A stretch of 64,000 nt of DNA from Atractiella rhizophila (lineage: Eukaryota), in contig MU271182.1 in assembly GCA_021432655.1 (NCBI GenBank), positions 62,001 to 126,000 on the forward strand, written 5' to 3'. Position 1 is the first letter of the stretch; every line of letters begins with the position of its first letter. Of this stretch, positions 1 through 31,720 are shown piece by piece. A model generated the notes under the pieces. That model was given only the letters and a program-made list of their open reading frames with translations, ran no database searches and had not been told where the DNA came from. The translations under genes and the position numbers were made by a program.

Positions 1-2415
1 CTTTCAACACAACACACAAAAATCTCTAGCTGCTTTCCACTCGCTTCTTTCCACCGCCCACGCCATGTTCGATATTTTACTTCTTCAGGAACCATATGTT
101 ACTCCAGGCCCCTCTCTTCCTTTTTTACCCAGGCTGGCGCCGTTTCTCCACTTCGCCGTCCGCTCGCTCTGCCATTTTGATCAACTCCGAAACAATCCAC
201 AGCTCTTCTATCTCCCAAATCATTTCTCCTATTCCCGAAATTTCTGCCGTTAAAATTTCATGCCCGCCGTACACCCTCGTTTTGTTTAACGTTTATAACG
301 CCACCGACATCATGTCCGACATTTTAAAGGTCCTGTTTGACCTGATCCACCGACTTTTGATCGAGTTTAATTCTGACGATAACTTTTTACTTTACGTTGG
401 AGGCGATTTTAATTTGCACCACGACCTTTGGAACCAAGAAGGATATTTCAGATGGGACCCGAAGGCGGAAGAATTGCTAACAAGTCTAACCGAGGTGGGG
501 GTTGGTCCTCAGGTCGGAACAAGGAGTGGTCACCTGGGCAGCAAGGGAGTCTCAAAAGGTCATCGACCTCGTGTTTGTTAACGCTGCGGCAGATGATCTA
601 GTAGAGCGATGCATAACCTCCCATGCCCCAGAGTTGAACCACGGTTCTGACCACTTCCCATACTCACGGCTTTCAATCTGGAGAAGACTGATCCACCAGA
701 CTTGGAAAGATTCAATCTCGCCAAGGCAGATTGGGATAAGATGAGAGAGGATGTTGAAGCTCGTTTGAACGGTTATCCCTTTGACCGAGAGACTCCTTTG
801 AACCGTGAAGAGTACGTAGAACTTGCAGTTGAGTATCTCACTTCGTCCATCCATTCGGCGCTGGAGGTGTCCACAAAGAAAGTGAAGAATTCTAAGTTTT
901 CTAAGGGGTGGTGGGACGAGGATCTCACGGAGCTCTGTGCGAAAGCCAGCAGGCAAAGAAATAGATTCCAGAAGACAAAAAGTGCAGCGGACTATGCATT
1001 GTGGCATAGATCTCTTCAGGCTTTCCGTCATGCGGTTAAAGTGCGTAAGCGCTCATACTGGAACAATTTCTTAGCCAGCTTGGATGAACAGTCGCTCTGG
1101 ACTGCTTCGTCGCATGCCAAGCATGAGAGCCGAGAGAGACAGATCCCGCCCCTACAGAATCCTGATGGCTCCCTCACTTTCGAAAACGAGGGAAAGGCGA
1201 GGATGTTTCACGAAACCTTCAGCGCTTCCCACCCCAAACCCATGTTGAATGACTTATAACAGGAGAGAGCAGCTAGAGATGACTGGATCGACTTCGGTGA
1301 AATCGAAATCCAGGATTTGAATCGGTACATCGAGAATTTGAAAAGGAAGTCAGCCCTAAGGAACGATGGAATTTCAAACTGGGTCCTCAAAGAACTTTGG
1401 TCTAATATCAGGGAAGTCCTTTTCCACATCATTACTTCGTGTTATTCTATGTGTTATTATCCACAAACGTGGAAGTGTTTCTCTACGGCGATATTAAAGA
1501 AGCCCAAGAAACCGGACTATTCTGTTTCAAAGGCCTATCGCCCGATTGCTCTGTTGAAGTGCCTCGCTACAATTTCGATGGAGTTCTAGCCGCGAAACTC
1601 GCCTTTTTCTCCGAGAAGCACCTCCTCCTTCCTGACCAACACGTCGGAGGTCGTTCGGGCCGTAGGACGACGGGATGCTCACCTTTCGGTTGTAGAATTT
1701 ATTATGGAGGGGTGGAGGAAGGGACAAGTGACGGCCGCAGCGTTTCTCGACGTGAAAGGTGCCTTTCCCTCCATCATTCACTGCAGACTAGTCGACAACC
1801 TCCGGAAAGCGAAAGTGGGCCCCCACTTCTACAAGCTGGCTTCGTCTTGGCTGGAGGGCAGATCCACATCCTACTCTTTTGATGGCTTCAATTCGGCTCA
1901 ACTACCCATCGAAACCGGCCTGGTCCAAGGCTCCCCTCTCTCCCCAATCCTCTACCTTTTCTACAACGCCTCCCTGCTCCACATAGCCTCCCATCGGGAC
2001 TCTCAGTCAGCTGGCTTCATCGACGATGTTTCCTACTTATACAGGTCGTCGTCAGTGGTCGTCAGTGGTGCTAGCAATAAGGGGACTCGAGGGAATGCTT
2101 GACAAAGCGGAGGATTGGGGCAGTAGTCATGGAGCTCTCTTCGAGCGAGACAAATCTAAGTTTGTTCTCTTCACTCGCAATCGTCAAAGGATAACTACTG
2201 GTCTTAGACTCCAATTCGGCGGCGAAAGACTTCGAATGTCTGACAGCGCAACACTCCTGGGTGTCATACTCGACAAGGAACTCCACTGGAAACCTCAACT
2301 CTCTTCCACCGAGGAGATGAGGAGAAAGTGCCTGATGACGATCACCTCGCTGGCGAAGACAACTGAGGGCATCCCTCTCGCTCAGTTCCGTCGCCTCTAC
2401 ATCACCATAGTCTGC
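1..2415 (+). mobile_element. LINE (Tad1-like) non-LTR retrotransposon ORF2, endonuclease + reverse transcriptase, frameshifted and 3'-truncated
   Basis: APE-type endonuclease motifs DILLLQEP, GGDFNLHHDLW, IDLVF, GSDHFP. RT motifs KPKKPDYS..KAYRPIALL, FLDVKGAF, GLVQGSPLSPILYLFY, FIDDV, LLGVILDKELHWK. They are spread over successive frames and similarity stops near 2415. Confidence 0.93.
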
Positions 2416-4990
2416 GCCGCCCCCGGTTGTGCGCCCACTGAGTCGAAATCACTATCTTCCTCCCCTAGTGCTGACCCAACGGGTACCTGGGGCGGAGGGG
2501 AAACCCCAGGATTTTTTCTGCCTTCGAAGGTTGTCCTTCAAGCTGGCTGTCAAGCTTTGGAGCGGCAAGTTGGTCCTTCTACCAGGATGTATAGGAGGGT
2601 TTAGCATTGTGGTGGCGTGAATAGTAAGGATCATGCTCCTGGCAAAAAGCGTGCAGTCTTTTTCAATGGCTGGGCTAGCCACCGCTCCCTCCCCTTGGGC
2701 TTGCCCATCGAATCGGTGCACTCTGCGTCCCCTAGCGCCGATCCAACGGGCACCTGGGCGGGGAGGGTAGTCCAGGATTTTTCGTATCGTTCTAGTGCGG
2801 ATATTTCATCATCTATCTCCGGGGAATTGATGAGTTGGAATCGGGATGAATCGTTGTCGTCTGTAAGAATGTTGAAGTGAAATATGATTCCGGAGGTGAT
2901 GAGTCTGGCCATTTCGAGCAGGTTTGTTGGGAGGTTTTTGGGGGGTTTCTTTCATCCTATCGTCTCATTCCTGTAGCACTGCCATGACCTGCTGCTGTTT
3001 GTCGGGGCAAAACATATGATGTCCCAATTATAAAAGTGACTTACTTCCATTTCTTCTTTCCATTTCTGGCCGAGTAGTATGTCAAAAGCGCGACCTGCAT
3101 CTAACACCCCAAATTCCGTTTCCCTGAGTTATGGTCCATTAATCACTGCTGAAACGGTGACCATCTTTCCTATTGGGATCTCGACTGAGCCATTGCCAAT
3201 GATCAGCGAACTATCTGAAGGGATAGGGGGGAGATCATTTTGATACTTCAGGTAGAAGTCCTTGCTCATCAAATTTCTTTTTGCTCCTTCATCGATAATC
3301 GCTCTAGACGTGATGAACCCTTCTAGGGCCTCTGTTCTTTTTGTTCCTACTTCTACGGTGATCTAGATCAACTTTCCTTTTGTCCACTTCTTTAGTGCCC
3401 CTTCCTGCGGTGATGTTGTCGCCAACCGATTCCCTTTCCTTAGTAGCTCATATCCTCGCACCAGCTGTGTCTGTTCTTCGGTTATCATGGGTACTCCTTT
3501 GTCTTAATGTATCGCTCTATCTGAAGCTGCAGACAGGGAGGGAGGACGAGATGGTGGTTGAGCAAATCGTGCCTGTTGTCCCGTCGAAACTCGTCGCGGG
3601 CCCTCATTCAATTCGCAGCTGGATTCCCCATCAGTTGAAGTCGCCGTTGGGACTCCCTCTGTAGATTCTGATGCTGGTGGGGCAGCATGTGCTTGTGTTG
3701 TTCGTTGACTGACGATTAAAGGCACTCTGACCGTTATGTCAATGTCAGGTCTCCCAGTTGGTGTTTCTGATTGTGGTCTCTGTCTGGGAGGGGGTGTCTG
3801 TGTGTCTAAAGGTGCTTGAGGGGGGGATATGTCTCGATCCAATTCATTTGAGGTGATTGAGGTTGTGTTTTCTTTATCAGCATCTCGTTCTAAAAGTACT
3901 GGTGTGGTTTGGGGGGGCGTGCTCTTGCAAGACTTAGTCAAGAGCCTGCACCCTCCACCCAGTCATTGCCCGTCGGAACTTCGCTTGGATCCTTGACGGG
4001 ACCTGAGTCGCTAGAGGGACTGACTCCAGGAATTTCCTTACTCCTTTCCTTTCCAACTTTTCTATAACTTCTCTCAGCCAGTCCAGGAATGAGCCAGGAA
4101 TTTTTGTAAATGAAGATGATTTGTTGAATTTATCCGCACTGGTAACAACAGGCATTTCCATATCTCTGTCTGGTTCTTGATCGACTTCGTAGCATCAAGA
4201 TAGGTTCTCGTGTAGAGTGTGGCATCGTTTCGGATGACATCGGCAGTTGCATTGGACAAGTGTGTTGCTCTGATGACAGTATTATCGATTTCATCGAAGA
4301 CGAGTTGATGTAGCACCTGGACTGGATCGAGGATATTGTTCTGAGCGCCGGTACGTGTTGAGGCTGCTGCTTGTCTGCATTCCCAAAAGATCCCAAGGTA
4401 ATCGGCATCTTCCTTGCTGATAATCGGCCGGTATGGTTTCACTGGCTTTTTGATCCAATCTTCTGCCGAAATCCCAGTGCCTGTTTCCGTAGCCATCGCT
4501 GCCATGCCTCCCATGGGCTGTTTCAACATCGAATCCGCAGGTGGAAGAACCTTTTTGGCTTTGTCAATGTCCAGCCTCAATCGATCCACCTCCTCATCCT
4601 TCTCCTTGTAAAACTTCTTCCACTTATCTTTGTCCATCAGTTCCCTCTCCAAAGAGCTCTCCAGCTCAAATACCTTCAACTCGAGTTGCTGCACATAAGG
4701 ATTTGATGAAAGATCGCACTGAGTAGCAATTTGGACATGGATAGAAAAGGACGCATCTTCTTGCGACATATTCAAGTTGCTTGTGGGAGAAGACTGAAAA
4801 TATTAAGAGAAATGAGATAGAGGTATGGGCGCGTAGCTGGCGTGGAGGGCTGGATAACAGAAAACGGTCGTCGTTGTCTAATTTTGCCAACGAAATTGCA
4901 TTGTCTGAACTTAGTGTGCATACCTGCATAAGAACAAGTGACTGTATTAGAATCCTTTCCTTAAATATTCCCAGCACAGAGACTCACATG
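2416..4990 (-). mobile_element. Ty3/Gypsy LTR retrotransposon 5' part (gag-like ORF + aspartic protease), degenerate
   Basis: Reverse strand 3000-3330 reads RAIIDEGAKRNLMSKDFYLKY...FGVLDAGRAFDILLGQKW (retropepsin-like). Upstream are gag-like ORFs 4074-4775 and 3504-4161. A possible LTR end (..CAGACA) lies near 4892. Confidence 0.72.
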
Positions 4991-5029: not shown

Positions 5030-8000
5030 CATTATCTGCTCGACACAATCAACTTCTGTCCTCCTGAGAATGAGGTTGATCGAGGATCCAGATCTAGATC
5101 CGGTCGAGAGGAAGGTGACCTAGAGATGGCAGATGGTGGAGATTGGTCTGGAGAGCTGAGGCAAGATGACGTACAGCATCTTGTGGCTGCTCCTGAAGAT
5201 GAGGAGGAGGCGTACCACAATCCAAATCCCGACCATGCCGCTCGTCCTGCTGGAGGTGGCAAGCTCACACCTGCAACACCACTATCGTAAGTAATCTAAC
5301 TGCAGAAAGGAGATATGCTGATGCTGGTACATTGGATTACAGTGAGGTTCGTGATATCCTGATGCCACTCTTCGATGATGGTTCTGATGACCTTCCAAGT
5401 CTTCCTCCAACTTATCACGATGAGATCCCTGTGCTTAGCGGCAAACAGCAGCTTACCTTGGACGAATTCCGAGTCTCGCACCGAGGCAATGAGAAGGAAG
5501 CAAGCTATGAAGGTCACTATCAGAATTGGACTTTACGTGATCACGACATGCATACCCTTCCGGAGGCAAAGAAGATGCTTGCTGAACTCAGTGGGCTGGA
5601 TGGAGAGTGGTTGCGATGTGTGGAGCTTCTTGCAGCTCCTACCTCGGGAAGTATGAGGGGTTGGAGCGGTAAGATTGTTGTCGTTGGCGGATGAATTACT
5701 TGAAGAGCTCACATAAGTTGTAGATGCCCTCATTCTCGCAAGATCAATGGACTGGTCGTACCCTGCAATAGGCCACGCTATTCCCTTTCCTTTGGACGCT
5801 CTGGGATCCCAGGACACTCATCGATAGTGAAAAGAAAGACTAAAAGAGCTTTCTCGTTTGTAACCCGATCCATCGAATCAAGGCAATGTTCCGAGCACCA
5901 CAAACGGCTGGCATGATGGGATATTTCGGGAGGAAGCTGGGAGAGACTCTGGCAAAAACTGAGTATCTTATAGACAAGCTGAAGAGCGGCTAAGCATACA
6001 ACGACTTCCATCACGGTATCGCAGTCCAAGCGCTAGCTGAGGACAACATTGGCTTCATGGAGGACGAACGAGAATCTGTTTTCATTGCGTCGACGGACGG
6101 TGTAGCTATCCACGCTACCCGCGACTCCAACGTGTGGTTTGTCGTTCTCTCGTTCCTTGGCTTCAACATGCAAGTCAGAGCAAAGCGCCGTCATACCTTC
6201 TTTACACTAGGCATCCCCGGTCCCAACAATCCAGTCGACATTCAAGCATTCTTCCTCCCGTTCTATAAGGCGATGGCGAAGCTGAGTGGAGGGTTGTGGA
6301 TGTGGGATGTGGCGTCTCGGAAGTGGTTTGTTTGGAAGGGATGGCTTATGAACAAGCTGGGTAAGTTATCTCACGCTTTCTTCATAATGTATTAATATTA
6401 ATACAGGCGATATGCTCGGTTCTGCAAAGGCCAACGGCTGCACAGGTCATCAAGGAAAGTGTGGCTGCCGCTTTTGCAAGATTATCGGTCAACTCCTAGG
6501 TCAGCATTACTACTATCCATGTATATCACTTCCCCAAGACGACAGTACTCTCCCCAGCTATCGCCCAGCTGCATATGACCCGCTCAATCTTCCAATTCAC
6601 ACCACGACTGAGTACACCGAAACAGCGAAGGATCTTGCACTCGCAACGACGCAAAGAGCGCGAGCAGAGATAGCGGGAGATAATGGTGTCATTTCCATCA
6701 CGCCAATTTCTGGATTCAAGACTTTCCGTGATCCATGACTGTCTTTGCTGGGGACCTGGCTCACCTCCACTGGAAGAACAACGCTGAGCTCATTTTCGAC
6801 TCTACCATGGGGATCAATAAGTAAGAATCACTTCTTGAGCCATGGCACCCAACATAGCAAGTACGAGAGGAGTTTGGGAACATGGTCGAGCGCTCTAAGG
6901 CCGACATTCCCTACGACTTCTCTCAAGCAGCTCCTCGGAACACACACTGATTCCGAAACATCCAGTATAAGATGCATGAGTGGTGGGACGTTTTTGATTG
7001 GTTCCTTATTCCCTGTCTGTTCCTTCTAGGATTCCCGTTCGACATCATACACCTTCTTGACTCGTTTATCTGCGGCTGCCGACTGGCGTGACAACATGAG
7101 ATTACTGAACAGGATCGCATGAAGATTCGGGAACATTTTGGTTCTTTCGTTATGGGCTGGAAGAAGCTATACGTCCATGGAGATCGCAACCGTCTTCGTC
7201 GTATGCCAATGTGCATCCACCACCTCTTGCACATTGCCGACTGGATCCTCTGGTGGGGCCGGGGATCCTCTACTCACAGTTCCCGATGGAGGGAATGATC
7301 GGATTCCTCAAGAAACGAATCAATCAGGACAACAAATACCAAGAGAACCTGCTTAACCAAGCCCTGTTGCTGGAGCAAATGAACATCATGGATATTCTAT
7401 ACCCAGCCCCAAATGTGATCCATGGAAACGCTGGCTCTCGATATCGGCGTTTCTCTCCCGCTCACTCACGCAACTCTGTTTATTCCCCTCGCTGGGCATC
7501 GATTCCTCTTACAAAGCTTGCAAAGCTTCAAGGTACCGAATACAGCATCGAATGGATGCATGAACTTGCTTTGATTCAAGTTCACTGCTTTGCTCGCAGG
7601 AAGAATCTCGAGGGGTTGGACTTGGAGAAAGTCGTGGCGAAGTGGGAGCATTGGGGACGGTGTGCCTTGGCTAATGGGGATATCATTCGGTCTCGGAAGC
7701 TGGAGGTCATGGAAATTCGATGCACGGAAAGCATGCAGGTATGAGGTAAGTTGCGGGTTAATGTGTCTTGCTATCTCTTCTAATGACGGAAACAGGGCAT
7801 TGACGACAAAGGAGATATCTTCTATGGCAAGACAGTGGTCTACATTCGGGTCCCAGAGTCTTTCTTTGACCCAGAAACAGACCCAGCCACTGACAAGCTC
7901 TTCGTACTCACTCAGCTCTTCACCAAATGCCAAAACCTTTTCAGGAGCGAAATACTTTGCCAATGGAGCAACGAATTCCGACTGGTGCCGCTCAATCAGA

Positions 8001-11845: not shown

Positions 11846-14069
11846 GTTTCAAGGTTCCCGACTCATGTTATCGTAAGCCGATTGTTCCTCCACGAAGCTA
11901 ACTGCCATGCCTTCTAGGCTGTATGCCTTTCTCCTTCTCAGGGAGTGCTCATCCCTGTTACCATTATCCTACCTTGCTCAACTTCGTGATTATATCCTGA
12001 ATCCAAGCGTGCGGGGTAATAATACCTTACCGTTCTGCCATTAAGGTATTGTCAACGTTCTGCCACAGCGACTTTTTTGTTCTGCCATTGTTGTGCCAGG
12101 CAGGCGGCCACATCAGTTAGCTGCCATGCTGTTTTGGGAGCTTAATTTGAGCTTAACTTTGAATTCTTTTGAGGTGCTCTATTTTTATTGTAATTGTTTT
12201 GTCTTGTGTTGTTCTTTTCGAATCGACCCCATTATGAGAATGCCAAAACAAGATTATCCACTCACAACGAAGAGCCCTTCTCAAGGAGCGAAGGAGGGTC
12301 ATCTTCCGTGGCACGCATTCCTGCAGCTTTCTGATGGTTCGAAGAGCAGAAGATTCAGGATCAGATGTCGCGAGCAAGCGTGCCCGTCTCAATCGACCAT
12401 TTGAGCCATGGGAATCCCTTTATTATATGCTTCTTTGAAATAAATGATATTGCCTAACTGCTAGATATGCCTACAATCCTCTGAAACTGCAATTTAGCGT
12501 TCTGCCCTTCCGCCATTCGCCATGGCAATACCTTATGTTCTGCCATGCCCCAAAATCGTATTGCCCCTAAGGCTACTGAATCCTCTCCTTTTCCCCATCC
12601 TGCATTCCTTCTGCCCCTTGCCCTTCAAAGGTGCCTGGAAGCTCTATTTTTGTCCAGATCAGCCCCTTCCTCGAGTCCGTGTTCCCGCTTACCAAGAAAA
12701 TGTTCAACGCCTCCCTTGTCTTCATTCCAACCTCTTTAGCAAGCATCAAACCTATCCTTGTCCTCCTAACACCGTCGTATGCGAGTCTAGCACTTTCGAT
12801 CGCTTGCCCATTATCGCCACGTCATCACCCGTCGCTTATCGAGGGATAACAGTAGTCCTACACTGTTCTTTTACCTTTCCAGCCCTGCTCATGTTCTGAA
12901 TTCAGCAGCTTGAATCCCCTAATCCAACCAATGCCTCGAAACCTGATTTCGCGGCCAATCCGCTGTTCTTCACCAGACCCTCTAACCTTCCTTCGAGTCG
13001 AAGTGTATGCGAAGTCAGTTTGTTCGTCATGTACTTCCAATCCTTCCTCTCCAGCTGAAACCATTCGCCTGTTATATCATCCTTGCTATGATTCGCAAAA
13101 AATCACTAACCTCTGGCCGAACGTCTTTCACTGCTTGCAAGGCCCCAGCACTAATCTCCATCATTCCTACTTGCAAAGTCCTGACAGCATCACCTTAGTC
13201 TTTGAACTTGGAAGCCAGCCTAGTGTCGTGTTTAGTCACAATTTGGAGGGTTGTGCTGAGGAGGTAGATCTCTGATGCCTCAATCGCTTCCACCCACCTG
13301 AAGAAGGAGAAGATGGAGAGGAGATATTGCGTACGGTGGTGAGGAGAAAATTGGTCGACTCCACCAGATCGAGAAGCTTGGAGAGTCTCAAACGTGTGAC
13401 GGAGGCAGAAGGGTTAGAAGGAAAGAGCGTTAGAAGCAGCAACAAGAGGAGCAACGCCGGAATTGTAATCTCCTTCCACTGTACATTCTTTTGCCTGTCG
13501 TTCCCCATTGATACCTTGATCTACTATCTCTTGTGCTAGGCGATGGGGGAGGATTAGTTTGTTGATGCCTTTACTCGTCTCTTGCGTTCTCAGGTGCTGA
13601 GTTGTGTTATGAGCTCATTGACTCACAACATGTTGTTATCGTAGGATGGGATTGTTACTACTGTGCTATTTACACACTTTATATACGTATGAAATGAGGA
13701 TTCTAGAATAGTCGTAACAAAGTGAAAACACTTGAACAAGGAGCAGATCAACAATCAGGATGAACAATAACAACAACACAAAGATAGTTCGAGAACAACT
13801 ACCACTCCAGCAAGGTGGCAGGATGAATGCTTAACCATAAACCATATCTCCATAGATTAAGGTATAATAAGAAGGGATGATTTCATTCCTGCCAGTTCGA
13901 GGTGTTGTCTTGCCGAAGGAAGAAACTGTACCCTTGACCGTATCTGGTGCAATGCCGCGGGAAGCAAAGAACGGTTGTTGCAACGCCACTTCCTTTGTAA
14001 TCGGGTAAATTTTGTTCACGAAATTGAGTTTTGTTAGAGCCTGTTTGGCAACTTCCACGTTTGAAATTT

Positions 14070-14181
14070 TGGCTGGGGTGAATTGGACGTGAATTGGACC
14101 CTAATCAGGCAATTCATGGTACTGTTTGGCAGCTGAAAAATTGCAATTCACAAATGTGCGAATTGCAATTCACCCCAGCCA
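14070..14181. repeat. 112-bp foldback/MITE-like element with 16-bp perfect inverted repeat
   Basis: TGGCTGGGGTGAATTG (14070-14085) pairs with CAATTCACCCCAGCCA (14166-14181). Internal hairpin AATTGCAATTC..GAATTGCAATT. No TSD seen. Confidence 0.75.
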
Positions 14182-14479
14182 GGATTCGAAAATCGAAATC
14201 GAGCCTTGGAGCTGTATTTCGATCCCAAATTTGTGATTTCGTTGCCGCGAGAACAACCGGACATGTTTCGGACTGCCTGATGATCAGCACTGTCTCCAAC
14301 CAAACAGCTTCCCCTCTGCTTTCTGACAATCATTGCAAGTCTCACCGGTAGGATGCTGTCCTGTCATAGAGACCATGTCTCTCTTCAGTCTCCCTCCAAC
14401 CTATAAAGCAGCCTCCTCAACATCCGTTCCCAATTTGTGCAGCAAACCAAACATTGCTTAGATAATGCGAAACAAACAT

Positions 14480-14988
14480 TGGGTGAAGGAAGCACTGACC
14501 AGCGGACATCTGCCCTTTTTATACCGCCGGACAATGTATGGCATCTTCGCCTCCACCTTGGCCAATGAATCTACATCTCCGTACTGTTCAAGTGCTCTCC
14601 AAATGGCGCTCCTTATGTCGGATTTCAAGCTTCACAAATGCATGGTAAACAGGTTGAGCCTTCACCGACTCGTCTTCTTCTCCGTAGAACTCCATTGCCA
14701 TGTGAAAGATTTCCCTCGCTCGATCCAATATCCCATGCACCTCCTCAAACTTTGGCCATTTAATACATATCCTTGTTCCCGGATGACAATTGACAACCTC
14801 TCAGCCACATTACTTGCACGGTCCAGTTACCCATACCTTACCTCCGTTTTGACATATGCGCTCCAAGCCTTTCATCTGGCTCCCATCCAGCGCTTGAATA
14901 TCTGCGAGCGCCGCTCGCATTCCCCAAGAGTTCATCAAGGAATACGTATTTGTACCAGAGCTGGTCCAGATGGGGGAGAAGGGTGAAA
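14480..14988 (-). pseudogene. CLF1: CLF1/crooked-neck (CRNKL1) splicing factor pseudogene, 3' piece with large internal deletion
   Basis: Reverse strand reads FTLLPHLDQLWYKYVFLDELLGNASGAR, WSAYVKTE, EFYGEEDESVKAQPVYHAFVKLEIRHKE, then jumps to C-terminal-like LEQYGDVDSLAKVEAKMP. Frameshifts and stops present. Confidence 0.88.
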
Positions 14989-15564
14989 CTCTATGAAAAC
15001 AGGGTTCGGTAAGAATTCTGTCAGTTCCGTCAAAAGCCAGTTACTGCGCGGGCGAAGTTCAGTCTGCCAAAAGTGACTGAATGTTCGACAGTCCGATGTC
15101 AGCAGTTTTTCAGCTCCGTTTCGGTGTGGTGCTTGTATCAATGCCGTCCGTCGTCTGTCGACAAGGTTCTCAGCTCATATTGTACTTCTTGTTCTAGCGC
15201 GCCAGTACCAGTAGTAGGCATTAGAAAGTCAGAAGGTATCGTCCCACTGTCACGTTTGTGTATTGTGTAAACTGATAGATATTGTCTTTCGCAGGTGGGT
15301 TCCCTTCACTACTTCCGACGACGCCTCTCCCCTCCACCTTCCTCCCGTTCCCCGACAACTGGGATCTGTTTTTCGCACCGTATCTGTAATGGAATGGAGA
15401 GTGACGGAGAGGGATTTAATGATTGTAGTTGTTGCATGGCTTTCATCGATGAGCTTTTTGTCGGTATGTCAGTCTTTGGTGTTGAATTTTCAAACAGAGG
15501 CTGCACACCGCATATCAAATAGATTCTGTATCTCAGATCTTGCTGTCTTTAAGATAATATTATA

Positions 15565-18500
15565 TTACTCTGTATCCTCCTCCAAGCGGCTGTCTACATC
15601 GTAGGTCCAAGGATTCTTCTTGAGAACATAAACTTTGGACGGAGAGGTGGCCGGTTGAAAGATGCCAATCAACTCTTTGACTGTGCTGCCCTGCTTCGTC
15701 CCACCTTCCCAAAAGAGTCTCTCCTGGGAGAGTTTGTGCAACAGAAATACAACGGCTGACAACAATGTGTGTTGCGCTGGAAACCGCTAGATTGGCGGGC
15801 AATCTTATGTATATTATTGCCTCGGCATATCCTTCCCTCCCGCCATATTCATACTTTCCATAAATCAGTCAAGCTATGAGAGAAAATAGATCACATGACT
15901 TACAACGATGCAACGTGCTCGCCTTACAGCATTACATTGCCGACTTTCATTTTCCAATGAGCGAACCACTGTTCCGTCTGCAAGGTGCATTTTGCCTGAC
16001 TTCTCTGATTGAGAATATATCCTAGCAACGTCTTCGCTTTCATATTCAGTTCCCATAATGGACGTAAGGTAAGACTGAAGTGCGGTTAAGATGCCGCTTT
16101 CAAGAGCAGAATCAAACGTCCTAGACCATGATTTGGTGGAAAAAGTGTTTGTTCTTTTTGTAGGTTTAGGAGAGGTGTCAATGCGAGGAATGTAGAGCTT
16201 GAGAATATTCAGTTGTTCGCGCCGGATCAAGTTATTCGCTAGTTCGGCATATGGCAGTCTTCGTGAACCCAGCTTGTCTTTCTCAGTTCCTAGATTTCGC
16301 TCCAAAGGAAGTTGTGTGAAGTTCATTAGGCTTCCTAGAATCTTGCTCAAGGGAACAATATGCAGAAGCTGATGCAGGCTCATTGGAACACGGCGAACCA
16401 GAGCAGGGATGTTCCGCACGTAGAGCTCCTCAAATCCAGTGCAAAAGCCGCTCATGAAGGAACCTGCACTTTGAAGTTGTGATAAAGAGGCGGCATGGAT
16501 GTTTGTGATGATTTTGACTGCAGAGACAAAGTTCGTCCAATGTTGTATGAGCTCGATGTGGAAGCCAACTTCCAGCAATATGGGAATGGAATGCCAATGC
16601 ACCCATCCAAGCCACTCATATATTGAATATCGCGTATTGCGGAACTTGTCTAGATTGCGAATGCGGTTTGAGAAGCGTGCTGGCAAATCAATTACCGCGT
16701 TGTCCATAAGCTCACCAACAAGGATTTTCTGATCTGTAGAAAGAAGGTGTCGGTCTCCTTCAACAGGCTCCACCTTTCCGCTCCATAAGTCCCATAGATG
16801 GGGAGTTACATTCTCATAGAGAAGGTGGGCAAGATCCGGTGGAAAGAAGAAAGTTGGGAAGAAAGTCGCAAGCCTGGACCAGATTACACACTTTACAATT
16901 CCAAACTCAGTTCGTAGCTTTTCTCTTCGTGTCTGATTTGGTGCATTTTCGATTTGTTCAAGATATTCGAAATAGGACTCGTTTGTTCGAAGAGGGAGAG
17001 CATCTGGATTACAAGTGTCCGGTCGATTTGCGTTAAGGTTCGTAAAGGGAGACAGCTGGTCATAACCCTGAAGCGAGGTGTCGTCAGAGGAAAGTAGTTG
17101 GTACTGACATTTGGTGCAGGCCGACATCCTCTCAATAGACAAACCTGCACCCACGAACCCCCTGGTGTCCTGTCATTCCATTCATCTTCTGGGAACCAGG
17201 CATATCGGCACAACATGCGCAAAGGTATCCTTTCCATAGGAAGGGGCGTTCTTCTACGCTATCCACATCCACACTCCTAGAGATGCTTGTGCAAAATCTT
17301 CCACAAATGGATAGAAAAAACTCTCGATATTGACAGGAGGGTTTGGCCCAGGAATGGCAGCAATTGGCAGCTCGATTGTGTCCTGCATCCTGCCTCTCTT
17401 CTGTAGGAACATTAAAGATTTGAAGCATAATCATCCAAACCTCTCCTTTCTTCTTCATGCTAAGCTGAGCACCATCAGTGGACAGGGAGAAAAACCCAGT
17501 ACGAGGATCATCAGAGAGGTTCAGACATTGTTGTAACGTTTGAAGAAGTTCACCATCTGCCAAATCCTTATATACTCGATCCGCTTCGTTTGCCAAAGCG
17601 AGACCTTGCATCAGAGTTCTGTAGTTGCTCCGCATCAATGCCGCCATTCTTCGATCACAAAGTAGGCACGGACTCGATTGAGAAAGTCCAGAGTAAGGTA
17701 TTCGTGTTGCGGTTTAGGATGTTCTCTGCCTTCCCTAGGGCAATAACGAGGTGCGTTACACTTGACTACCTTGCCATCGATATTCCGCACACAGGGACAA
17801 AACTTCAAATGATCATATGGCCCAATAAATGCCATGCAAGAGTTCACACACATGTCGTGCCGGCGAGGAGACACTCTGGTGAGTTGCTCGATATGTTTGG
17901 TCGTTTCGTAAAGTGACAGAATTTTGTTGCCTTGTGCACGCAGATTATTTGCATATCGATTGTAATGCTCAACTCTTCCATTGGTTTTGGCCCAAGCATA
18001 CCAGTGACAAAGGCTTGGAAGTAGCTCTTCGTCATCAGGAGAAACTGATGGCGGGAAAGTGGGTAGATCTGGTGGAGTATTGTCGGGAGGTAGAAGGTGA
18101 GGAAATTCTTGCTTGAGTTCCTCATACCGACGTCGGAAACTCTGTGCAGTCCACTTGTCCGGATCGATGCCGCCTTGATCATGTCCCTCACTACCACTCT
18201 CAGGATTGGCCATCCCCTCACCGCCATCTTCAATGTGTGATCCCTCTAATCCTGCCGAATTCTCCACGCCTTCTTCTTCGGATTCTCCTGCCATGTACGA
18301 TCCCATCTGCACGTCTGCAAAATGATATTGCCCATCTAGATGCAGGTGCAGTTCATCGTCCGACTCTTGATCTTCATTATCCTCTGTTATGGCTTGATGG
18401 AGAGGAGAAGGAGAAAGGGTTGAGAGTGTGGAGAGGTCGTGATGTACATCAGTTGGAGTATTTTTCGAGCTGCAAGGCAATTAGCGGATTGTCAGGTGAA

Positions 18501-18839
18501 TGAATATAAGTGCGTACCTTCCTAAGCTTGATGCCATTATATCCAGCATGAGTTCTGCATGTTGTTCTTCTGCAGTCTCGTCTCCATCATCTCTCTGATT
18601 TTCAAGTGCTTGCTGTCTTCTTAAGGCAGATATGGCCGTAGCGGTACTTGGTTGAAGAAATCCAGAGCCACCTGCAACTCTGACATAATAGGGAGACCCT
18701 GTGAGTGCAAAAGTTGTGCGAGAGTGAGATCTTTGATGTGATGCTCTCGAATAGTTCTGGGATCAAGCCAAACCGGCTGTCCATTCCGCTTTTCACAACA
18801 CTTTTTGGAATAGCAGAGACATGGCTCTTTGGCTCGCAT
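15565..18839 (-). pseudogene. CACTA/Tnp2-type transposase of the 6.8-kb element, spliced, several frameshifts
   Basis: N-terminal CLC..C..TIREH segment, then HDMCVNSCMAF..CPC..CNAPRY, SLSTDG, CADMPGSQKMNGMTGHQGVRGCRF, PDLAHLLYEN, MSLHQLLH, QLPLERNLG, GKMHLADGTVVRS. Intron ~18471-18518. Confidence 0.9.
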
Positions 18840-19029
18840 TCTGATGCCAATTCTGCCGTGGCATAAAGCTATTGGTAAAGAAGAGTTTTGAAGAGATTGC
18901 TTCTGATTTATTTGCAGATAAATGACTAGCAGGCACCTTGTAGAATCACGTGCAGCTACAGTGCAAAAAAATATTTTTTTTACTTTCCAAAACAGCCACT
19001 GACCTTCTCAACTTCAGACTCAACACCAC

Positions 19030-21480
19030 ATGCTACACGGTCTAACAGCGACTTGTCAGCACTTTTAGGATCATCTCCTGGCCTTATGGCCAAGGAACCT
19101 ATTCAACCGCTCTCTCATTCAATGCCCTTGCACAGGAAGCTCGACCAACCCCAAATCTCTCCTCCAACAACCTTCAACTCCTCCTTAGTTCGTTCCTTGA
19201 AAATCAAGACAATTTCAAGGCTCGTATTGCTGAGGCAGACCAGGACAGAATGTATCAACGAAGTCGAATTGTGGACTGGGAGGCAAAGAATCAGGAACTG
19301 CAACTAAAGAACTGCGAACTGGACTCGCTCACAAAATGTGTGTCTTTCTTGTTCTACTTTCATTTCAATGACAGCGTGATGGAGTGTTTACAACACCACA
19401 ACCAATGCATCGCCCACCTGAATATCCAATCGAAGTGTTGTGGGATGAGAAAGATGCAAAGGATGTGCCTGATGCAGAGTGGAAGGCAAAAAATCCAACC
19501 CGCTTTGCTAATAGCCATCTGCTGCGTAACCCAGATGGGTCAAAATATTCATCAGATGAAGTCAGGCAGGTAGAGGATGAGTTTCTACCTGTTGCGATCG
19601 CTGTCATGTTGCAGAAAATCCCGGTGGACTCTTTTCCAGATAAAAAACTATCTTTTCAGTTTCTTAAAGGGCATCCGCATGTCATCCAGCTTGGTTGTCA
19701 ATCTCTAGTCAGCTCAGATTCCAGAAGTGGCCTATGTTATAATAACTGGAAGGCAAAGAAGCTCATTCAAAACTATATTGCGAATCGGAATGACGCTCGG
19801 AGAAAGAAGGAGAGAAAAGGCTTGTCAAGAGCAAGAAATCAAGCAGACAGGACAAACACTTTGGTGTGTATTGCTTTTGAACATTCTTTGCTGAGTAACG
19901 AACCTGGTTTGTTATTCGATAGCCTGAAGTAGAAATTATTTCAAACTTGCATACACAGGTAAGCTTAGTTCCATCCTCAATGTGAACCTTTCTTGATTGG
20001 AGCTGGTGCAGGGAAACATCCAAAAATTTCTGGAAACAACCACAAGAAACTGGCCCCATGTTTGTCTCTTTCTTTGTTGATTGATTGGTATTGATTACAG
20101 CTGCTAGGGAGCACTTCATCAGATTAGCACCCAAACTTCCCTCCCCAGTCAACCGTTCAAAGTGCAGTCAAGAGCAAACGTATGTGCTTTATCCACATTG
20201 GCCAGATTCTAACCAGTTTGGTAGCCTCAGTTCAAAATGTCAGTAGAATCCGAAACAACCACTGGTTTGTCAGCGCTTGCCAACGTAGCGATTGAAATTG
20301 ATCTGTCTCCCACTGGTACGCCCTTTCTCCGCCAGCTGTCCTGCTTATAACGCTGCAGGACTCTTTTCCACTCGCCTTCCATCCGTTCCTCGTGTAACGG
20401 AGTTGCTTCAACTTATCAGAGAGCTGGAGGATCTCAATTTCCCATCTCAACCTGCTCATCCCGCTCTGGAACATATTATCCGGCAGCTTTCTACGGCCCA
20501 GGATAATCCTGACGATGAAGACCATGGCGACTTTATGTTTTTACATGATGTTCTGAGCTTGAATTGGAGGACTCACACAAAGATCTATGATTCTTTAGGT
20601 TCTCTGACCAACATTTTACGCTTTTGCAGGTCTGGGACGCTCGATTATTATTTCACGCACATCCTCTCTACAGATATCGAAAACGCCGGAAGCAACTCAG
20701 GTTCAAAAAGAGAACGGGGGGAAATCCCTCTTGGACGCATATGCACCACAAGTTGTCGAGATGCTGCTCACTACTCTCTATGAAGAACATGCAAAGAGGG
20801 TCCTGGGCAAGAAACTCGTGAGTACCTCAATTCTGCTTCCCCATTAGCGTTGATTAGCAGGATGCAACAGAAGACACGCACGGCAATGTCTAACGTCAGT
20901 GGCAGCAATGTCAATACCTTTGAAAAGAAAGCGTCAGGTATGTTCCAACTTAAACAAAGAACTTCACTGATGAAGGGTAATACTACAGGACATAGAAACA
21001 AGCGTAACCACCCAAGAGGGCTCTACCACCGCTGTTTTGATGGAATCCAAACAAGACAGGGTTGTTGAGCCTGAAGGAAAGAAGAAATGGGTAATTAAAC
21101 TGAAAGTGCCTCCGTCCGATGGCAGTAACCCCCTCTCGAAGGCAAGTTGTTCACTCCTCTCTGCATTTTTTCCAATAAATTTCCTCTTACAGTGAACGAG
21201 ATCAAAAAGAGTAACCGGCGCCTCAAGTAACGGCAGTGGTGAAGCCGAAGTATAATCACAGGTACACATCTAATTTTCATCATAAGAACAGCAAGCTGAC
21301 ATGACGTTGGACAGGATTCTCCTTTTTTGTAGCCGAACCAAGGTGAGTCCCTTGTGCTGCATCTGCTGAAACAAACCAAATAGTGATTACAGATACTCGT
21401 CGGCCCGGAGTCTCCCACCACAGTGCTGTCTGGCACATTCCTCATGCAACGTTCCGGATCCTTCTCAGTCTGACATTGGA
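19030..21480 (+). pseudogene. Accessory multi-exon gene of unknown function inside the 6.8-kb element, divergent from the transposase
   Basis: ORF pieces 19250-19340 (coiled-coil-like), 19384-19932 (LWDEKD...GLCYNNWKAKKLIQNY) and 20292-20783, separated by GT-AG intron-like segments and frameshifts. The 3' limit is uncertain. Confidence 0.6.
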
Positions 21481-21819
21481 TCGTTTCTTCATACAGATCA
21501 ATCAAAGTCTAACCACTTTATACTTATATAGTTGAGGTATAATGAATTGCAAATGCATAGTATTGAATATCCAACGATGATGACGGCCAGGAAATTAACT
21601 GAGGCGTGTTGAATTTCAACTGAATATGAGTGAAAACCAACTGACTAAGGCTAGTGAGTTCCGTGCCGAGCGTACTGAATATTCACTGCAGCACACTGAG
21701 TTAAAAGTCGTTTCGATTGGCACAAACTGAAGTCTGGTCAGTCAAAATTCGGTCACAACTCAAGCATTGACTTCGCGCTGACATCCAACTGACAAACGAC
21801 GGAATCCGTTTTCATAGAG

Positions 21820-22230
21820 GGTGAAAGCTCGATCGAAGACGTTGCGCCTGTTGAATGTCACGCGCTGTGAGCTCCATCTCCGTATGTGACATCTACACCT
21901 TTATTTCAGCCGGAGAGACGTCGAGGGCCTTCTCGTAGACCGACCTCGAGCGATCGTACTCTCCTTTGAGACTTCCCATGAAGCATATTTCACCATGGTT
22001 TCATCCACATTCAAGAGAATCATGGACTTTACACCGTGTCCCATGTTGCTCAAGAACAAAGGGATCGTGAACAGTGATACGAGTCCTCCTAATCGTTTCC
22101 TCAAACTCCTTCCTCTTTCCCGCCGAGTACGCACTGAGCTCTTCGAAATCCTCAATTCGTTGGCAGGGAGCAATATCTTTGGGTTCTTGCAGTTCCTGCG
22201 CTTCACGAAGATATTTATCTATGGTTGATT
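21820..22230 (-). pseudogene. CLF1: CLF1/crooked-neck pseudogene, 5' piece
   Basis: Reverse strand reads LREAQELQEP..APCQRIEDFEELSAYSAGKRKEFEETIRRTR, VKYASWE, RSVYEKALDVSP, TEMELTARD, FDRAFT, the N-terminal HAT-repeat region of crooked neck. Confidence 0.9.
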
Positions 22231-23519
22231 GAAGCACCAGACAAGATATAAATGGACCAAAGTTAGCTTCAATTTGAGAAAAGACGTAGAAAAACTTCAT
22301 CAACACAGGCTTGGAGTCCAAAAACTTGGATTCTCCACGAACTTACTTGGTTCGTCCTTCTCTGCTCCTGGTGAAAATGGAAGTTGGGGAGCTGACGATG
22401 AAGAAAACACAACCCGTGGCAGCAAGCACAATCCCGGTGAGAGAAAACCCTTGCCTGGTGAGATGAGGAATGCCGGCATGTGAGGCAATCGAAGCTGGGA
22501 TGGCTGCTAAAAGGCGATGCAAAGTGCTGAGCAGCATTTGAGGGAGTAGAGACTTCCCAGGAAATTTGAGCGGACAACAAATGACGATGGTGGCGGGGCA
22601 GTGACCTCAAGAATAAGTCTTATCATTCTCCCCTCCTGTCAAGGCGACGCCTGTCACGTAGAGAACACAAGAGATAGAGGAGATCCAACCCGGTGATAGC
22701 AAAGCCGCTCCTGGCCTCTACGGAAGGGAAGATTCGCAGCGATGGGAGCAGCGAGAGCGGATAAAGCTATCGAAGGATTTAAAGCCCTCCTCACCTCTCG
22801 GAGTCTGGCAGAATAACTCATTTTCAGATATGCATCGTAACGACTTGAAGTGTTGTCAATTGTGTTGGATTTGATACGCAGACGATGCGCCAGCAGATCT
22901 GGTCGGCGGTTAGTTGTGAAAGTGAGAGAACGATGTACTAGATAAAACCTTCCTGCTGGCTCGTGATCCGGGTGAAAGTCTGATACATCCCCTCTTGCAG
23001 CCATATGCTGTTGACTGGGCTTCACAGACAGCCAGAAATGACGACCTAATATGAAGGCTATAGCCGTCCGGCTTGGTGGAAAGGATGGTGAGCTCAAAAC
23101 GTACAAGAGGATACGAGACTTCGTGGTATATCCATGAGAATCCATGAGTTAACGAAGTTTCTCTTCTGTACTGGGGGAAACTGATAGACCACACTGACTC
23201 CAGATGTTTTTGAGTGAGGAATTGGCTTAGAACACTTCACAACGCGGAGCTCACACAGGGTGTCTCATGCGATGTCCTCTGGTTTCAGGAAAACACAAGG
23301 TGATTGAGTAGTGCTTATCGAGACTGTTGAACCAGGGGCTCCCTCATGAGGATTCTTGGGGTTATCCACTGTGAAGTCTCGCCGACATGGGGACATGTTG
23401 GTGGTGAAACAAGGGAGGGACATCCGTGTCAAATGAGGTGAAAGTTCAACCTATCAAAGGAGACCCAACAAGAACATTGAACATTGGTTCATCAACAATT
23501 CACCTCCTGAGCTCATCTA

Positions 23520-29459: not shown

Positions 29460-31720
29460 GCTTGCAGTCCTTAAGATGCTTGCAGAAGTGCTAAAAGCAC
29501 CTTCATGGCTTTTGACGGAACAGTGTTATTGCTCGGAGCATTGGTGTGTTGTACCACGACACCCAATTCCGCCGTTCGCGTCTCGAGCTCTCGACGGATC
29601 ACCGCTGCTTCTTCGCTCGAAGGGGTACACTGAAGATCGCACACGAGGCACAGCAGCCCGCTGCAGAAAGACATTGGTCAGCCCTCTGTCAATGAACACG
29701 CAACGGGCTCACGTCAAATGTATGAAGAGGAGCTGGAACGCCGGTAAGGGTGGTCTGTTGTTCATGATCTGAGCCAGTTTCACTATAACTTGTTTAGAGG
29801 ATGCTCTTGTGAAATGAAACAAAGCGAACTGGCATTCGAGATGGCTACAAAACGATGCCAATCCAAGTTGATCCCATCGACCTCGTTCCGCTGCATGGTG
29901 AGGAAGGGACGATGCAACAGGACATAACCAAACGCAAGGAGGACCTTGAGGGCATAAACTTGATTAGGAGACTTCGGAGTTCCTGCCGTCTCAAAATTGC
30001 TTATATCGGTGGAGATGTCCTCAAGGCTCTTATTCAACTCCTTGATATTGTCGTACGTGACTGAATCACGAGCTGTGAGGTGTTGAATCCGCGCAAAGGT
30101 GACGACGAGAGTGTGCTGGATCGCTCGCATCGCTAGAACAGATCCCCCCAAAGACTCATCGAGCGTTCCCGGGTCGGTCTTGGCTGTGTAAGATGGTATT
30201 CGTGTCCAATGATGGCCACATTCGCCCTCGATAGATGGGCAGCCAACTTCTCCAAGGTCAGCTAGAAAGGTTGGGAAGGTAGAGAGCTTACATATCGATG
30301 TAATAGAAGTGCCAGAAAAGACGCCTGCGATCTTCTACTTCGTCGTAAGACATCCCGGAAAGCAGATCGGCCGGACCTTTAAGCAGGTTTAGGGTCTGAA
30401 GAAGCTGGGGAGCACCAGTCCAGAAATTGTTAGCGGAGGGGATGTGTACCCCATCCGAGAAGGAGAGCCAGTAATGAAACATGAGCGCCAATGCACGAGC
30501 CGCATCCAATATTGGCTCTACCGTCCACCCAGCTACCAAGATAATTAAGGGACAAAGACGATGTTCAAGGAAAGAAAACTTACGTCCTACGTTCAGCATC
30601 TTGACACCAGCATCTACCCAGAAACGGGCGAGGAGTGCTGCTTCCTGTTTCGGAGGAAAGCCGGTCTCTCTCAGCTTCTGCTCGTCCATCACTGCCAATC
30701 CGATCGCGCAAACTAAGAGGTATTTTGACACCCAATGATGGTCGAGTCCTTCTGGGCGTCCAACCACAGACTTGTTATTGATGAAGAGGTAGTAGTTTTG
30801 GACATCTATTCTAAACTTCCCACGAGCGATGAGTGGACTGGGAGTGTAAGACGTGTTGAAGAAGGAATCGATTGCAAGACTTCCTTGAATTTCGGTCGGG
30901 AGAACGTCGGCATCTGGAAAATGCTGAATTGTTTGGGGGTAAGGCACAGGAGGACCGCCAAGGTTATTGACGGGGCTCTGAGGAGCGGAAGCAGGTTAGC
31001 AGGATACGGAGGAAAAGTAAGCGGGACCGGGCGAACATTTTGGAGGATCCGAATTTCATCGTCTCTGGGGAACAAGGACATGGACAGTTCTTGCGCCATG
31101 GTGTTGTTCTGCAAAGGCACCTTGATATCCCGGACGGTCGGAGGAGGCGCTTTTGCGGGCTGAGTTGAAGATGTTGTTTCTGCCGCTGCTGGGGCCTCTT
31201 GCGATGTCCTGCAAACAACCAAAAACTCTGAGAAGGACAGGAAAAGACGCAACTCAGGCTAACGTACTGCGGTCCATTGGTGAGGAGCGTGCAGACTTTA
31301 TCATCCCCCCTCGCTCTGCAATTGCTACACGGTCTTCCTTGATCACATCGTGTCCTCCGGGTCCTGCACTGCTCACTCCATGTCAACATAGCTCAGCCTT
31401 CGAAATAACGCTCAGAATCGCACCTGAATGCAAGCCGTTGCTGGTCGCCCTGAGAAGTGCAAATCAGTCTGGTTCCAGATAGCATTCAGTAAACTGCAGC
31501 TCGCCTCCGCCTCTCCCCCTTCCTACACCCTTCTGGCCCTTTGGACGAGGTGGTTTAACGGCCGCAGTGGTTGAGTTTCGCGATGCAGAACCAGAAAAGT
31601 TTGGTTCAGACTGTGCAGTTTCGGGAGGTTGTGCAGCTGAATGTGAGGAGTTGGATTCTGTTGAGAGCAGGAGGGGATTGAGCGTGAACTCCATTTTTAC
31701 TGCCTGCATCTGAGGAGCGT
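29460..31720 (-). CDS. Zn(II)2Cys6 fungal transcription factor with fungal-specific TF domain, multi-exon, possibly damaged
   Basis: EQCRTRRTRCDQGRPCSNCRARGDDKVC (31290-31375), EVEDRRRLFWHFYYID (30290-30340) and YVLLHRPFL. An apparent frameshift lies near 30950, and gene ends are approximate. Confidence 0.85.

Follow-up and report, generated by a model that had tools for sequence, protein, structure and literature searches.

A Tnp2-type transposon with CTC ends and a 7-bp target site duplication in Atractiella rhizophila

Can a transposon that encodes a Tnp2-type transposase end in CTC..GAG and duplicate 7 bp of its target? According to a 2025 survey by Kojima, the EnSpm/CACTA clade (CMCT) is characterized by duplications of 2 to 5 bp and CA..TG ends (PMC12730594, section 3.1.6). 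The question is raised by an insertion in contig MU271182.1 of Atractiella rhizophila, which we analyzed within a stretch of 64,000 nucleotides (termed the window; all positions refer to it). We conclude with high confidence that positions 14989-21819 correspond to one copy of a DDE cut-and-paste Tnp2 transposon (EnSpm/CACTA, CMC) and that this copy belongs to a large and widespread basidiomycete group with CTC ends and 7-bp duplications. Its boundaries, the duplication length, the transposase family, and the layout common to the group are demonstrated by the data described below.

Boundaries of the element and its target site

The element of ~6.8 kb (14989-21819) has CTC..GAG ends and 12-bp inverted termini without mismatch, namely, CTCTATGAAAAC on the plus strand at 14989..15000 and its reverse complement on the minus strand at 21808..21819. 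Each terminus adjoins a copy of GGTGAAA, located at 14982..14988 on the left and at 21820..21826 on the right. Motif counts in the subterminal regions revealed two TCAGT motifs on the left (15001..15340, plus strand) and seven, in inward orientation, on the right (21470..21807, minus strand). With up to one mismatch allowed, exactly two matches to the terminal 12-mer exist in the whole window of 64 kb, compared to 0.44 expected by chance. An end-pair scan, in which all left ends at 14000-15900 were combined with all right ends at 18900-22800, resulted in 80 candidate pairs, and 14989/21819 was the sole pair whose outermost 10 bases agree without mismatch and which is flanked by a direct repeat of more than 4 bp. 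The same scan identified no prominent nested CAC..GTG pair inside the element. With the ends fixed in this way, the two copies of the duplication agree at 7/7 positions, and a repeat of 2 to 5 bp is absent. A second copy at the DNA level was not found within the 64-kb window.

The site was also inspected in public read-derived contigs (Logan). In contigs of runs X1, X2, and X4, position 14986 is joined to 21844 and the element is missing; the sequence within these joins is a diverged version of the flank that contains a single 7-mer and has the length of one copy. In a contig of X2, position 14976 is followed directly by 21818; this is the near-identical empty site minus one A. Among the matches listed, seven X1 contigs continue into unlike sequence exactly behind 21819, indicating that the right boundary is fixed in other copies. 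Further read contigs contain internal-deletion joints, such as that of 16175 to 18740, and 331 and 494 contigs match at 85 to 100% likeness. That the family has been mobile is indicated by its further copies, by derivatives with internal deletions, and by the empty site, all of them from one sample; the family may be active at present. The duplication was examined at a single insertion (n = 1) in the genome of the window itself. Taken together, the end-pair scan and the empty-site contigs confirm the original prediction of inverted termini that each adjoin GGTGAAA and of a 7-bp target site duplication.

The insertion lies in an exon of a gene copy of the crooked-neck/CLF1 kind. The exon downstream of the insertion (14838..14981, minus strand) encodes a crooked-neck/CLF1/Cwf4-like HAT repeat that aligns to residues 132-173 of S. 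pombe Cwf4 (E = 3e-10), and the host is therefore a crooked-neck/CLF1-type gene (splicing factor). The exon piece upstream of the insertion (21827..21860, minus strand) is too short and gave no protein match; reading continues over the junction after removal of the element and one 7-mer. The in-frame repair of the host gene, which had been put forward as confirmation of the insertion site, is valid only locally, because the host copy contains further frameshifts elsewhere; it looks like a decayed gene copy. The region as a whole is repeat rich and shows many coding frameshifts, which may be assembly errors. As to the mechanism, the two element ends attacked the target strands at points separated by 7 bp, and gap repair then gave rise to the GGTGAAA duplication; excision may follow the hairpin-type chemistry of the clade.

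Transposase and second gene

A Tnp2-type transposase pseudogene was delimited at 15874..18839 on the minus strand by tblastn with homologues, alignments, and sequence reading. A possible start codon at 18837-18839 (minus strand) is followed by an N-terminal Cys cluster, and the alignment places the catalytic D residues of STDG and ADMPG at 17132-17713 and the C-R-F motif and the E of LER at 15874-17172, all on the minus strand. The sequence contains at least four frameshifts, for example at 17395, and one stop. Because of the broken reading frame and the loss of a conserved His from the H(3)H motif (HIVPL), the window copy is not self-mobile as assembled. The Pfam matches of the element's own ORFs were below threshold (DUF4218, 17.9 bits; DUF1258, 18.5 bits), and a protein search for longer relatives with the 432-amino-acid ORF found nothing. 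The predicted Tnp2 type is instead borne out by the relatives. PF02992 (cut-off of 28.6 bits) was matched by 21 of the 24 long homologues, 20 of them above the cut-off, and by all five intact transposase ORFs in CTC-ended elements (32.9 to 55.5 bits). Among the matches listed, it was also the only precomputed domain in 80/80 relatives of the protein of locus L002, which itself has weak Transpos_assoc and DUF4218 matches in the order known from plant Tnp2. No transposase family was detected in the remaining ORFs of five complete CTC-ended elements (0/16), and no hAT family was among the Pfam matches when the ORFs of the window element and of these five relatives were scanned.

In the alignment, the conserved columns D (STDG), D (GDMLGS), and E (SQATVER) are found across the group. 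P0003, the four Tilletia-type proteins, and the second Tnp2 element of the window have the C-R-F-C motif, and the window transposase has C-R-F, after which a frameshift cuts the motif short. In its place, D-R-F-S/T occurs in L002, L003, L055, L064, L044, P0004, and P0027; these proteins have the H(3)H motif. L064, L067, and L055 fall in the main subclade, which is marked by GDRFS/T and lacks the C(2)C motif that defines the clade. In a quick tree, the window copy was placed apart from the main metagenome clade, on a long branch. These two observations, like the subthreshold Pfam matches of the window ORFs, count against our conclusion.

The remnant of a second gene (ORF2), corresponding to its N-terminal domain, is located at 19372..19932 on the plus strand and points away from the transposase. 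It was detected by tblastn in both directions: ORF2 of the relatives matched the window at 19390-19857 (E = 5e-8 to 1e-4), and the reverse search resulted in 18 matches at E up to 1e-4, of which the best 8 were at 1.4e-10 to 8e-8. ORF2 is found upstream of the transposase and on the opposite strand in 29 loci as well as in the window, and the layout end - ORF2 - Tnp2 - end is kept among relatives that are 26 to 35% identical to the window ORF. This recurrence counts against a nested insertion; given also that no other transposase family is present inside, the transposase is not a guest in a foreign element, in agreement with the original prediction. For the predicted ORF2 model (mean pLDDT of 69.4), Foldseek gave nothing at E up to 0.001 and VIA-align nothing beyond generic helical bundles (Z up to 6.4), and ORF2 occurs in the Atlas in unnamed basidiomycete clusters only. 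It may serve as a DNA-binding helper.

The window contains two further transposase genes, namely, the second Tnp2 gene at 5200-7750, which carries C-R-F-C, and a Plavaka gene at about 50744-51538 (PF18759, E = 1.2e-15). A convincing end pair was found for neither of them.

Ends and duplications of related loci

An end of the type CTC[A/T]GT[A/G]AAAA that adjoins an nGT(G/C)ACn 7-mer was present at 39 of 80 related metagenome loci; approximately 1.6 matches to a stricter end pattern are expected by chance over all 80 loci. All 31 locus ends with the strict pattern have CTC..GAG, as do L064 and L067, so that the predicted noncanonical termini are confirmed in the window and in its relatives alike. 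Both ends were found in eight elements, including the window copy. The two copies of the duplication agree at 7/7 positions in the window, L064, and L067 and at 6/7 in L055, whereas the remaining two-ended elements are at the chance level given by the target preference (L044, 5/7; L057, 4/7; L002, 4/7; L003, 3/7). In the empirical null, 7/7 was reached in 5 of 474 cases, with a mean of 3.75 matches. We attribute the missing duplication in the latter four elements to two candidate causes, chimeric repeat assembly in the metagenome contigs or recombination between copies. Pairs of the same family with different flanks (L064/L067, L055/L057, L044/L049, and L027/L028) show that the element boundaries are fixed. 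Relaxed matching revealed no credible partner ends for 26 one-ended loci. The 7-bp duplications thus establish, together with the single 7-mer of the empty site, the duplication length and a stagger different from that usual for CACTA elements, as had been proposed; the different end chemistry proposed along with it is putative. The members of the group have in common CTC[A/T]GT[A/G]AAAA ends, duplications of 7 bp, and the palindrome nGT(G/C)ACn as their preferred target.

Alternative explanations and known systems

One alternative is that a Kyakuja (KDZ) element owns the ends and the 7-bp duplication and that the Tnp2 gene travels as a passenger or was inserted into that element, with a KDZ transposase acting from elsewhere. 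Kyakuja elements do give 7-bp duplications (PMC12730594, section 3.2.1), and they resemble the CTC group in being large basidiomycete elements with extra genes of no assigned role; in addition, non-autonomous families that start with CCCAGTGAAAA and have 7-bp duplications are placed in Kyakuja in the Marasmius oreades library (PMC8290104, Table S3). However, neither KDZ (PF18758) nor CxC was found in the window ORFs, the 24 homologues, the 21 ORFs of five complete elements, the scans of L002, L064, and L055, or the precomputed domains of the 80 listed relatives, and the transposase family therefore differs. Furthermore, the published consensus sequences of Kojima begin with CACATA and are said to be without inverted repeats, the layout is conserved at the low identities given above, and the window has no nested boundary pair. 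We consider this alternative largely refuted and very unlikely. It is still less probable that an ordinary CACTA element was misread, with CAC..GTG ends situated two bases outward, a 3-bp duplication, and a 7-mer that merely reflects a palindromic target. The ends of L044 are readable as CACTCAGT with the 3-bp duplication TCA, and 26 of 33 ends have C at position -2, but position -1 differs within a single family (C in L064 versus G in L067; T in L055 versus A in L057) and hence belongs to the flank and not to the element. Moreover, each of the four good pairs agrees at the outermost 7-mer positions, 1 and 7, the window flank is AAA and not CA, and the empty site contains one whole 7-mer. A chance match or an assembly artifact, for example a chimeric join, might be suspected from the repeats and the many, possibly erroneous, frameshifts of the region; we regard it as practically negligible, as the ends are perfect, the duplication is exact, the host gene is continuous over the site, empty sites and other copies exist in short-read contigs, and the same structure recurs in independent metagenome contigs.

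The reading as a Tnp2 transposon with CTC ends can be compared with several known systems. Like EnSpm/CACTA (CMC; CMCT clade), the group has the PF02992 domain, weak Transpos_assoc and DUF4218 matches that are ordered alike, conserved D, D, and E columns, and an H(3)H motif, which the window copy has lost; short inverted termini, subterminal repeats, and the presence of a second gene are further common features. It differs in its CTC..GAG ends (versus CAC..GTG), its 7-bp duplication (versus 2 to 5 bp stated clade-wide), its palindromic target, and the lack of the C(2)C motif in its main subclade. Plavaka elements are likewise CMCT-type transposons of basidiomycetes, but they have TGT..ACA or CATCA..TGATG ends and 2- to 3-bp duplications; their domain PF18759 was matched at E up to 10 by none of L002, L064, and L055 and was absent from the 24 long homologues, the ORFs of the five complete elements, and the precomputed domains of the 80 listed relatives, although the profile library used does detect it in the Plavaka gene of the window. 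A profile comparison of the CTC group with the Plavaka fragment of the window, which covers only the start of that domain, gave a probability of 2% and is uninformative for this reason. The terminal CTCAGT[A/G] resembles the Transib/RAG1 signal heptamer CACAGTG. Judged by description, Transib/RAG1 is set apart by a stagger of 5 bp versus 7 bp here; Transib/RAG1 and the EnSpm-type clade have C(2)C and H(3-4)H motifs in common (PMC12730594).

The original prediction had left undecided whether such elements are already cataloged. In Table S3 of PMC8290104, the M. oreades families MarorKyakuja-4/-6 and MarorDNAU-4/-16/-18 are listed with the starts CCCAGTGAAAA and CAGTAAA and with 7-bp duplications. 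By this table description, they are very similar to CTCAGT[A/G]AAAA ends. Near-identical ends with 7-bp duplications are thus on record, but the families are non-autonomous, and on the basis of their ends and duplications they were either placed in Kyakuja or given no class; their kinship with the CTC group is a lead and not a result. A literature search for 7-bp duplications together with EnSpm or CACTA retrieved PMC12730594 as the only relevant paper, searches for the terminal motifs gave only unrelated papers among the matches listed, and these motifs were not found in the accessible part of the PMC12730594 supplement.

These observations can be combined into a broader reading, which we consider plausible but not quite probable. 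The CTC group may be a deep CMC/EnSpm lineage that extends across the Basidiomycota (Agaricomycetes, Atractiella, and perhaps Tilletia) and has gone unrecognized in print. In this lineage, the stagger would have widened to 7 bp, CAC would have changed to CTC, and nGT(G/C)ACn would have become the target; the largest subclade would no longer have the C(2)C zinc motif, which is regarded as the defining feature of the EnSpm-Transib-RAG1 clade; and the "7-bp" Kyakuja or unclassified families in mushroom libraries would be deletion derivatives.

The classification of DNA transposons, above all of non-autonomous ones, is based mainly on duplication length and terminal bases. If a common basidiomycete branch of EnSpm/CACTA has CTC ends and 7-bp duplications, elements are being assigned to the wrong group, such as Kyakuja, or to none, and the stated range of the clade (2 to 5 bp, CA..TG) is too narrow. 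For the genome of A. rhizophila, the element adds a further insertion to a region rich in repeats, within a seemingly decayed gene copy. The group is a natural comparison for how EnSpm-Transib-RAG1-type transposases space their two cuts in the target and for the question of whether they can do without the C(2)C zinc site.

Element ends and the length of the target site duplication

The Tnp2-type element of the window begins with the terminal inverted repeat CTCTATGAAAAC (14989-15000) and ends with its reverse complement (21808-21819), and reading of the sequence places one GGTGAAA 7-mer directly outside each end (14982-14988 and 21820-21826), as the original prediction had described. With up to one mismatch allowed, the terminal 12-mer has only two sites in the 64-kb window, at a chance expectation of 0.44. 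A scan of all left ends in 14000-15900 against all right ends in 18900-22800 yielded 80 candidate pairs, and 14989/21819 was the sole pair that combined no mismatches in the first 10 bases with a flanking direct repeat of more than 4 bp. Past base 12, similarity between the two ends is scattered; seven copies of the motif TCAGT lie in the 220-bp right subterminal stretch and two on the left side.

Relatives were retrieved by scanning metagenome contigs with the family alignment, which gave 80 loci whose products are 26 to 35% identical to the window's ORF. The terminal motif CTC[A/T]GT[A/G]AAAA was at the expected place in 39 of them, and many of the remaining loci are on short contigs that stop before an end. 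By chance, a stricter end pattern would be matched about 1.6 times in the whole 573 kb. Four pairs of loci (L064/L067, L055/L057, L044/L049, and L027/L028) carry the same family in unrelated flanks, and in all four the match breaks off precisely at the C of CTC. The 7 bases outside 33 distinct ends form a palindrome, n-G-T-(G/C)-A-C-n, centered on the middle of the 7-mer, with T at -5 and A at -3 (30/33 each), C at -2 (26/33), G at -6 (18/33), and either G (17) or C (12) at -4. Beyond the 7-mer, the flanks are unrelated between loci. The same ends, from L002 to L072 and the window, also have a bias toward T, G/C, A, C, and C at positions -12 to -8; the data suggest that the target is a longer palindrome of about 17 bp.

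Both ends could be read on a single sequence for eight elements, including that of the window. Their two 7-mers agree at all seven positions in the window, L064, and L067 (the family of L064 at another site), at six in L055, five in L044, four in L057 and L002, and three in L003. Since the target is biased, the null was built from every possible pairing of a left with a right flank taken from two different loci (474 in total); it had a mean of 3.75 matches, with 7/7 in 5 pairings and at least 6 in 24. Three perfect pairs among eight are far above this null. The 7-mers of L044, L057, L002, and L003 are no different from unrelated flanks, possibly owing to chimeric assembly of these 7- to 11-kb metagenome repeats or to recombination between copies. 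Alternative boundaries were also considered. An 8-bp duplication fails in L064 and L055 when shifted to the left and in the window, L067, and L055 when shifted to the right. CAC ends with a 3-bp duplication were rejected, given that the base adjacent to CTC differs within one family and that the window flank is AAA. The proposed CTC ends and 7-bp duplication are borne out by the window, L064, L067, and L055 and by the empty-site contigs described below.

Insertion site and additional copies

Four public sequencing runs (X1 to X4) contain part of the stretch, and their read-derived contigs were all compared over 13900-22900. In one contig each of X1 and X2 (organism A, one sample) and of X4 (organism B), 14986 is linked to 21844 by 21 letters that match the flank in diverged form, and the length over the site is exactly one 7-mer. 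These contigs represent a diverged version of the locus without the element. Another X2 contig, in which only two letters separate 14976 from 21818, is a near-identical empty site minus one A at 14977. Among the rows listed, seven X1 contigs depart immediately behind 21819 into sequences unlike one another (agreement, 0.52), indicating that other copies end at the same base and supporting the right boundary. Contigs matching the stretch at 85 to 100% likeness number 331 in X1 and 494 in X2, and joints such as those from 16175 to 18740, 15125 to 16030, and 16978 to 17316 reveal copies with internal deletions. Jointly, the contigs show a multicopy family that includes deletion derivatives, and a site found both with and without the element. 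The sample appears to contain at least three versions of the host locus.

The left flank, read on the minus strand, aligns with residues 132 to 173 of Schizosaccharomyces pombe Cwf4 (E = 3e-10) and also matches crooked-neck and CLF1 chains from other species; the right-flank piece, too short a query, gave no match when searched alone. This crooked-neck/CLF1-like copy spans 14462-14988 and 21827-22342 on the minus strand, with several frame changes among its conserved stretches. Removal of the element plus one 7-mer gives an uninterrupted reading over the junction, so that the claimed in-frame repair of the host gene is right locally. It does not extend to the whole copy, in which adjoining conserved stretches lie in different frames and the sequence just upstream has two letters (GC) fewer than the diverged empty-site contig. 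The host copy is either a decayed duplicate or poorly assembled, with assembly indels.

Transposase family and the question of nesting

The transposase gene (about 18839 to 15874, minus strand) was delimited by homology to a large family, with 693 representatives at E values up to 0.001. As assembled, its frame has at least four breaks and one stop. One break is an extra base at 17395 that is missing from most X1 and X2 contigs covering the site and from the single X3 contig that covers it, and P0002, a 79% identical relative, reads straight through; this base may be an assembly error. The breaks as a whole are either real or assembly errors, and similar breakage is found in the LINE fragment, second Tnp2 gene, and host gene of the window. 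ORFs of the window element have only subthreshold Pfam matches, to DUF4218 and DUF1258, and the predicted assignment to Tnp2 is settled through relatives rather than through these ORFs. PF02992 (Transposase family tnp2) was matched by 21 of 24 long homologues (20 above the cutoff, 3 without a match) and exceeded the cutoff in all five intact ORFs of 842 to 1,023 amino acids within CTC-ended elements. It is also the only precomputed domain in each of the 80 relatives listed for the L002 protein, which itself has additional weak Transpos_assoc and DUF4218 matches in the order seen in plant Tnp2 proteins. None of the proteins scanned (ORFs of the window element, homologues, ORFs of CTC-ended elements, and L002 relatives) matched the Plavaka or KDZ models, while the same library detects a clear Plavaka domain (PF18759) in an ORF at 50744-51538 on the minus strand (E = 1.2e-15), an in-window control for the Plavaka model.

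Three catalytic columns are conserved in the alignments: the first D (STDG), second D (GDMLGS), and E (SQATVER). C-R-F-C is found in the homologous protein P0003, in Tilletia-type proteins, and in the second Tnp2 element of the window; a frameshift breaks it in the window copy, and D-R-F-S/T takes its place in the main metagenome subclade, which includes L064, L067, and L055, the relatives in which 7-bp duplications were verified. That subclade keeps H(3)H, but the window copy has lost it (HIVPL).

A nested insertion within an unrelated element owning the inverted repeats was also considered. In 29 loci, the transposase gene has a second gene, ORF2, on its upstream side and in the opposite orientation (best example, L055:1588-3165, 526 amino acids), and the N-terminal domain of ORF2 is recognizable at the same relative position in the window (19390-19857, plus strand), where its C-terminal domain was sought and not detected. 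No other transposase family was found within five complete relatives. The ends, ORF2, and the Tnp2 gene thus remain associated across the full depth of the group, which speaks against nesting; the end-pair scan (14000-15900 by 18900-22800) likewise contained no prominent inner CAC..GTG pair. The AlphaFold model of ORF2 has two confident helical domains (mean pLDDT, 69.4), and structural and family searches gave no informative match. By analogy with the two-gene En/Spm system, we propose that ORF2 may bind the subterminal repeats. An extra ORF in L044 (4046-5062, minus strand) and L002 (8902-9795, minus strand), with homologues in L022, L040, L042, and L049, varies in position within the element and has a weak cyclin-domain match (PF08613; E = 2e-4 to 8e-4); it may be captured host sequence.

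Repeats are abundant over the whole window. They include (i) the second, divergent Tnp2-type gene (5200-7750, plus strand; weak PF02992 match, E = 2.8e-4), which is about 25 to 30% identical to homologues of the first, has an intact C-R-F-C, and is split over several frames; (ii) a non-LTR retrotransposon fragment (30-2604, plus strand) with an endonuclease-reverse transcriptase match and an RVT_1 match (E = 3.6e-11), broken across several frames; and (iii) an LTR retrotransposon (42789-44792, plus strand), indicated by weak Copia-type gag matches and a Pol beta-barrel match. Neither the ends of the second Tnp2 element nor the boundaries of the Plavaka element were found in the window. An ORF at 30288-30995 (minus strand) weakly matches the fungal-specific transcription factor domain PF04082 (E = 8e-4).

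Carriers and relation to described families

Named carriers are Atractiella rhizophila (nearest to the window copy), Tilletia indica, Coprinellus aureogranulatus, and Athelia sp., and the nearest Atlas clusters of ORF2 are basidiomycete. In a quick, midpoint-rooted tree from an incomplete search, which carries long-branch warnings, the main 81-row clade excludes the window copy and P0002, which group with P0003 and L072 on a long branch. Tilletia-type proteins join between that branch and the main clade, and CTC ends are present on either side of the root.

In PMC12730594, the EnSpm/CACTA (CMCT) clade is described as having mostly CA..TG ends and 2- to 5-bp duplications (2 to 3 bp in Plavaka), and Kyakuja as having 7-bp duplications and CA..TG ends without inverted repeats, its consensus sequences beginning CACATA. 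A Cryptococcus preprint likewise defines KDZ elements through PF18758 plus CxC domains. Among the Marasmius oreades entries in Table S3 of PMC8290104, CMC families begin CACTGG with 3-bp duplications, nonautonomous "Kyakuja" families begin CCCAGTGAAAA with 7 bp, and unclassified families begin CAGTAAA with 7 bp; the 7-bp families appear to belong to the group described here and to have been classified by the length of their duplication. Literature searches by terminal motif (among the matches listed) or by 7-bp duplication with EnSpm/CACTA found no description of the group. Such families may well be present already in curated databases under a different name.

The observation itself is confirmed, and its interpretation as a distinct CACTA-like lineage is supported overall. 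As assembled, the window element is a defective Tnp2-type transposon. It represents a lineage, widespread in basidiomycetes, whose terminal bases, duplication length, and target preference differ from those of the superfamily to which it belongs. The finding is of use for repeat annotation and of moderate interest for transposon specialists.
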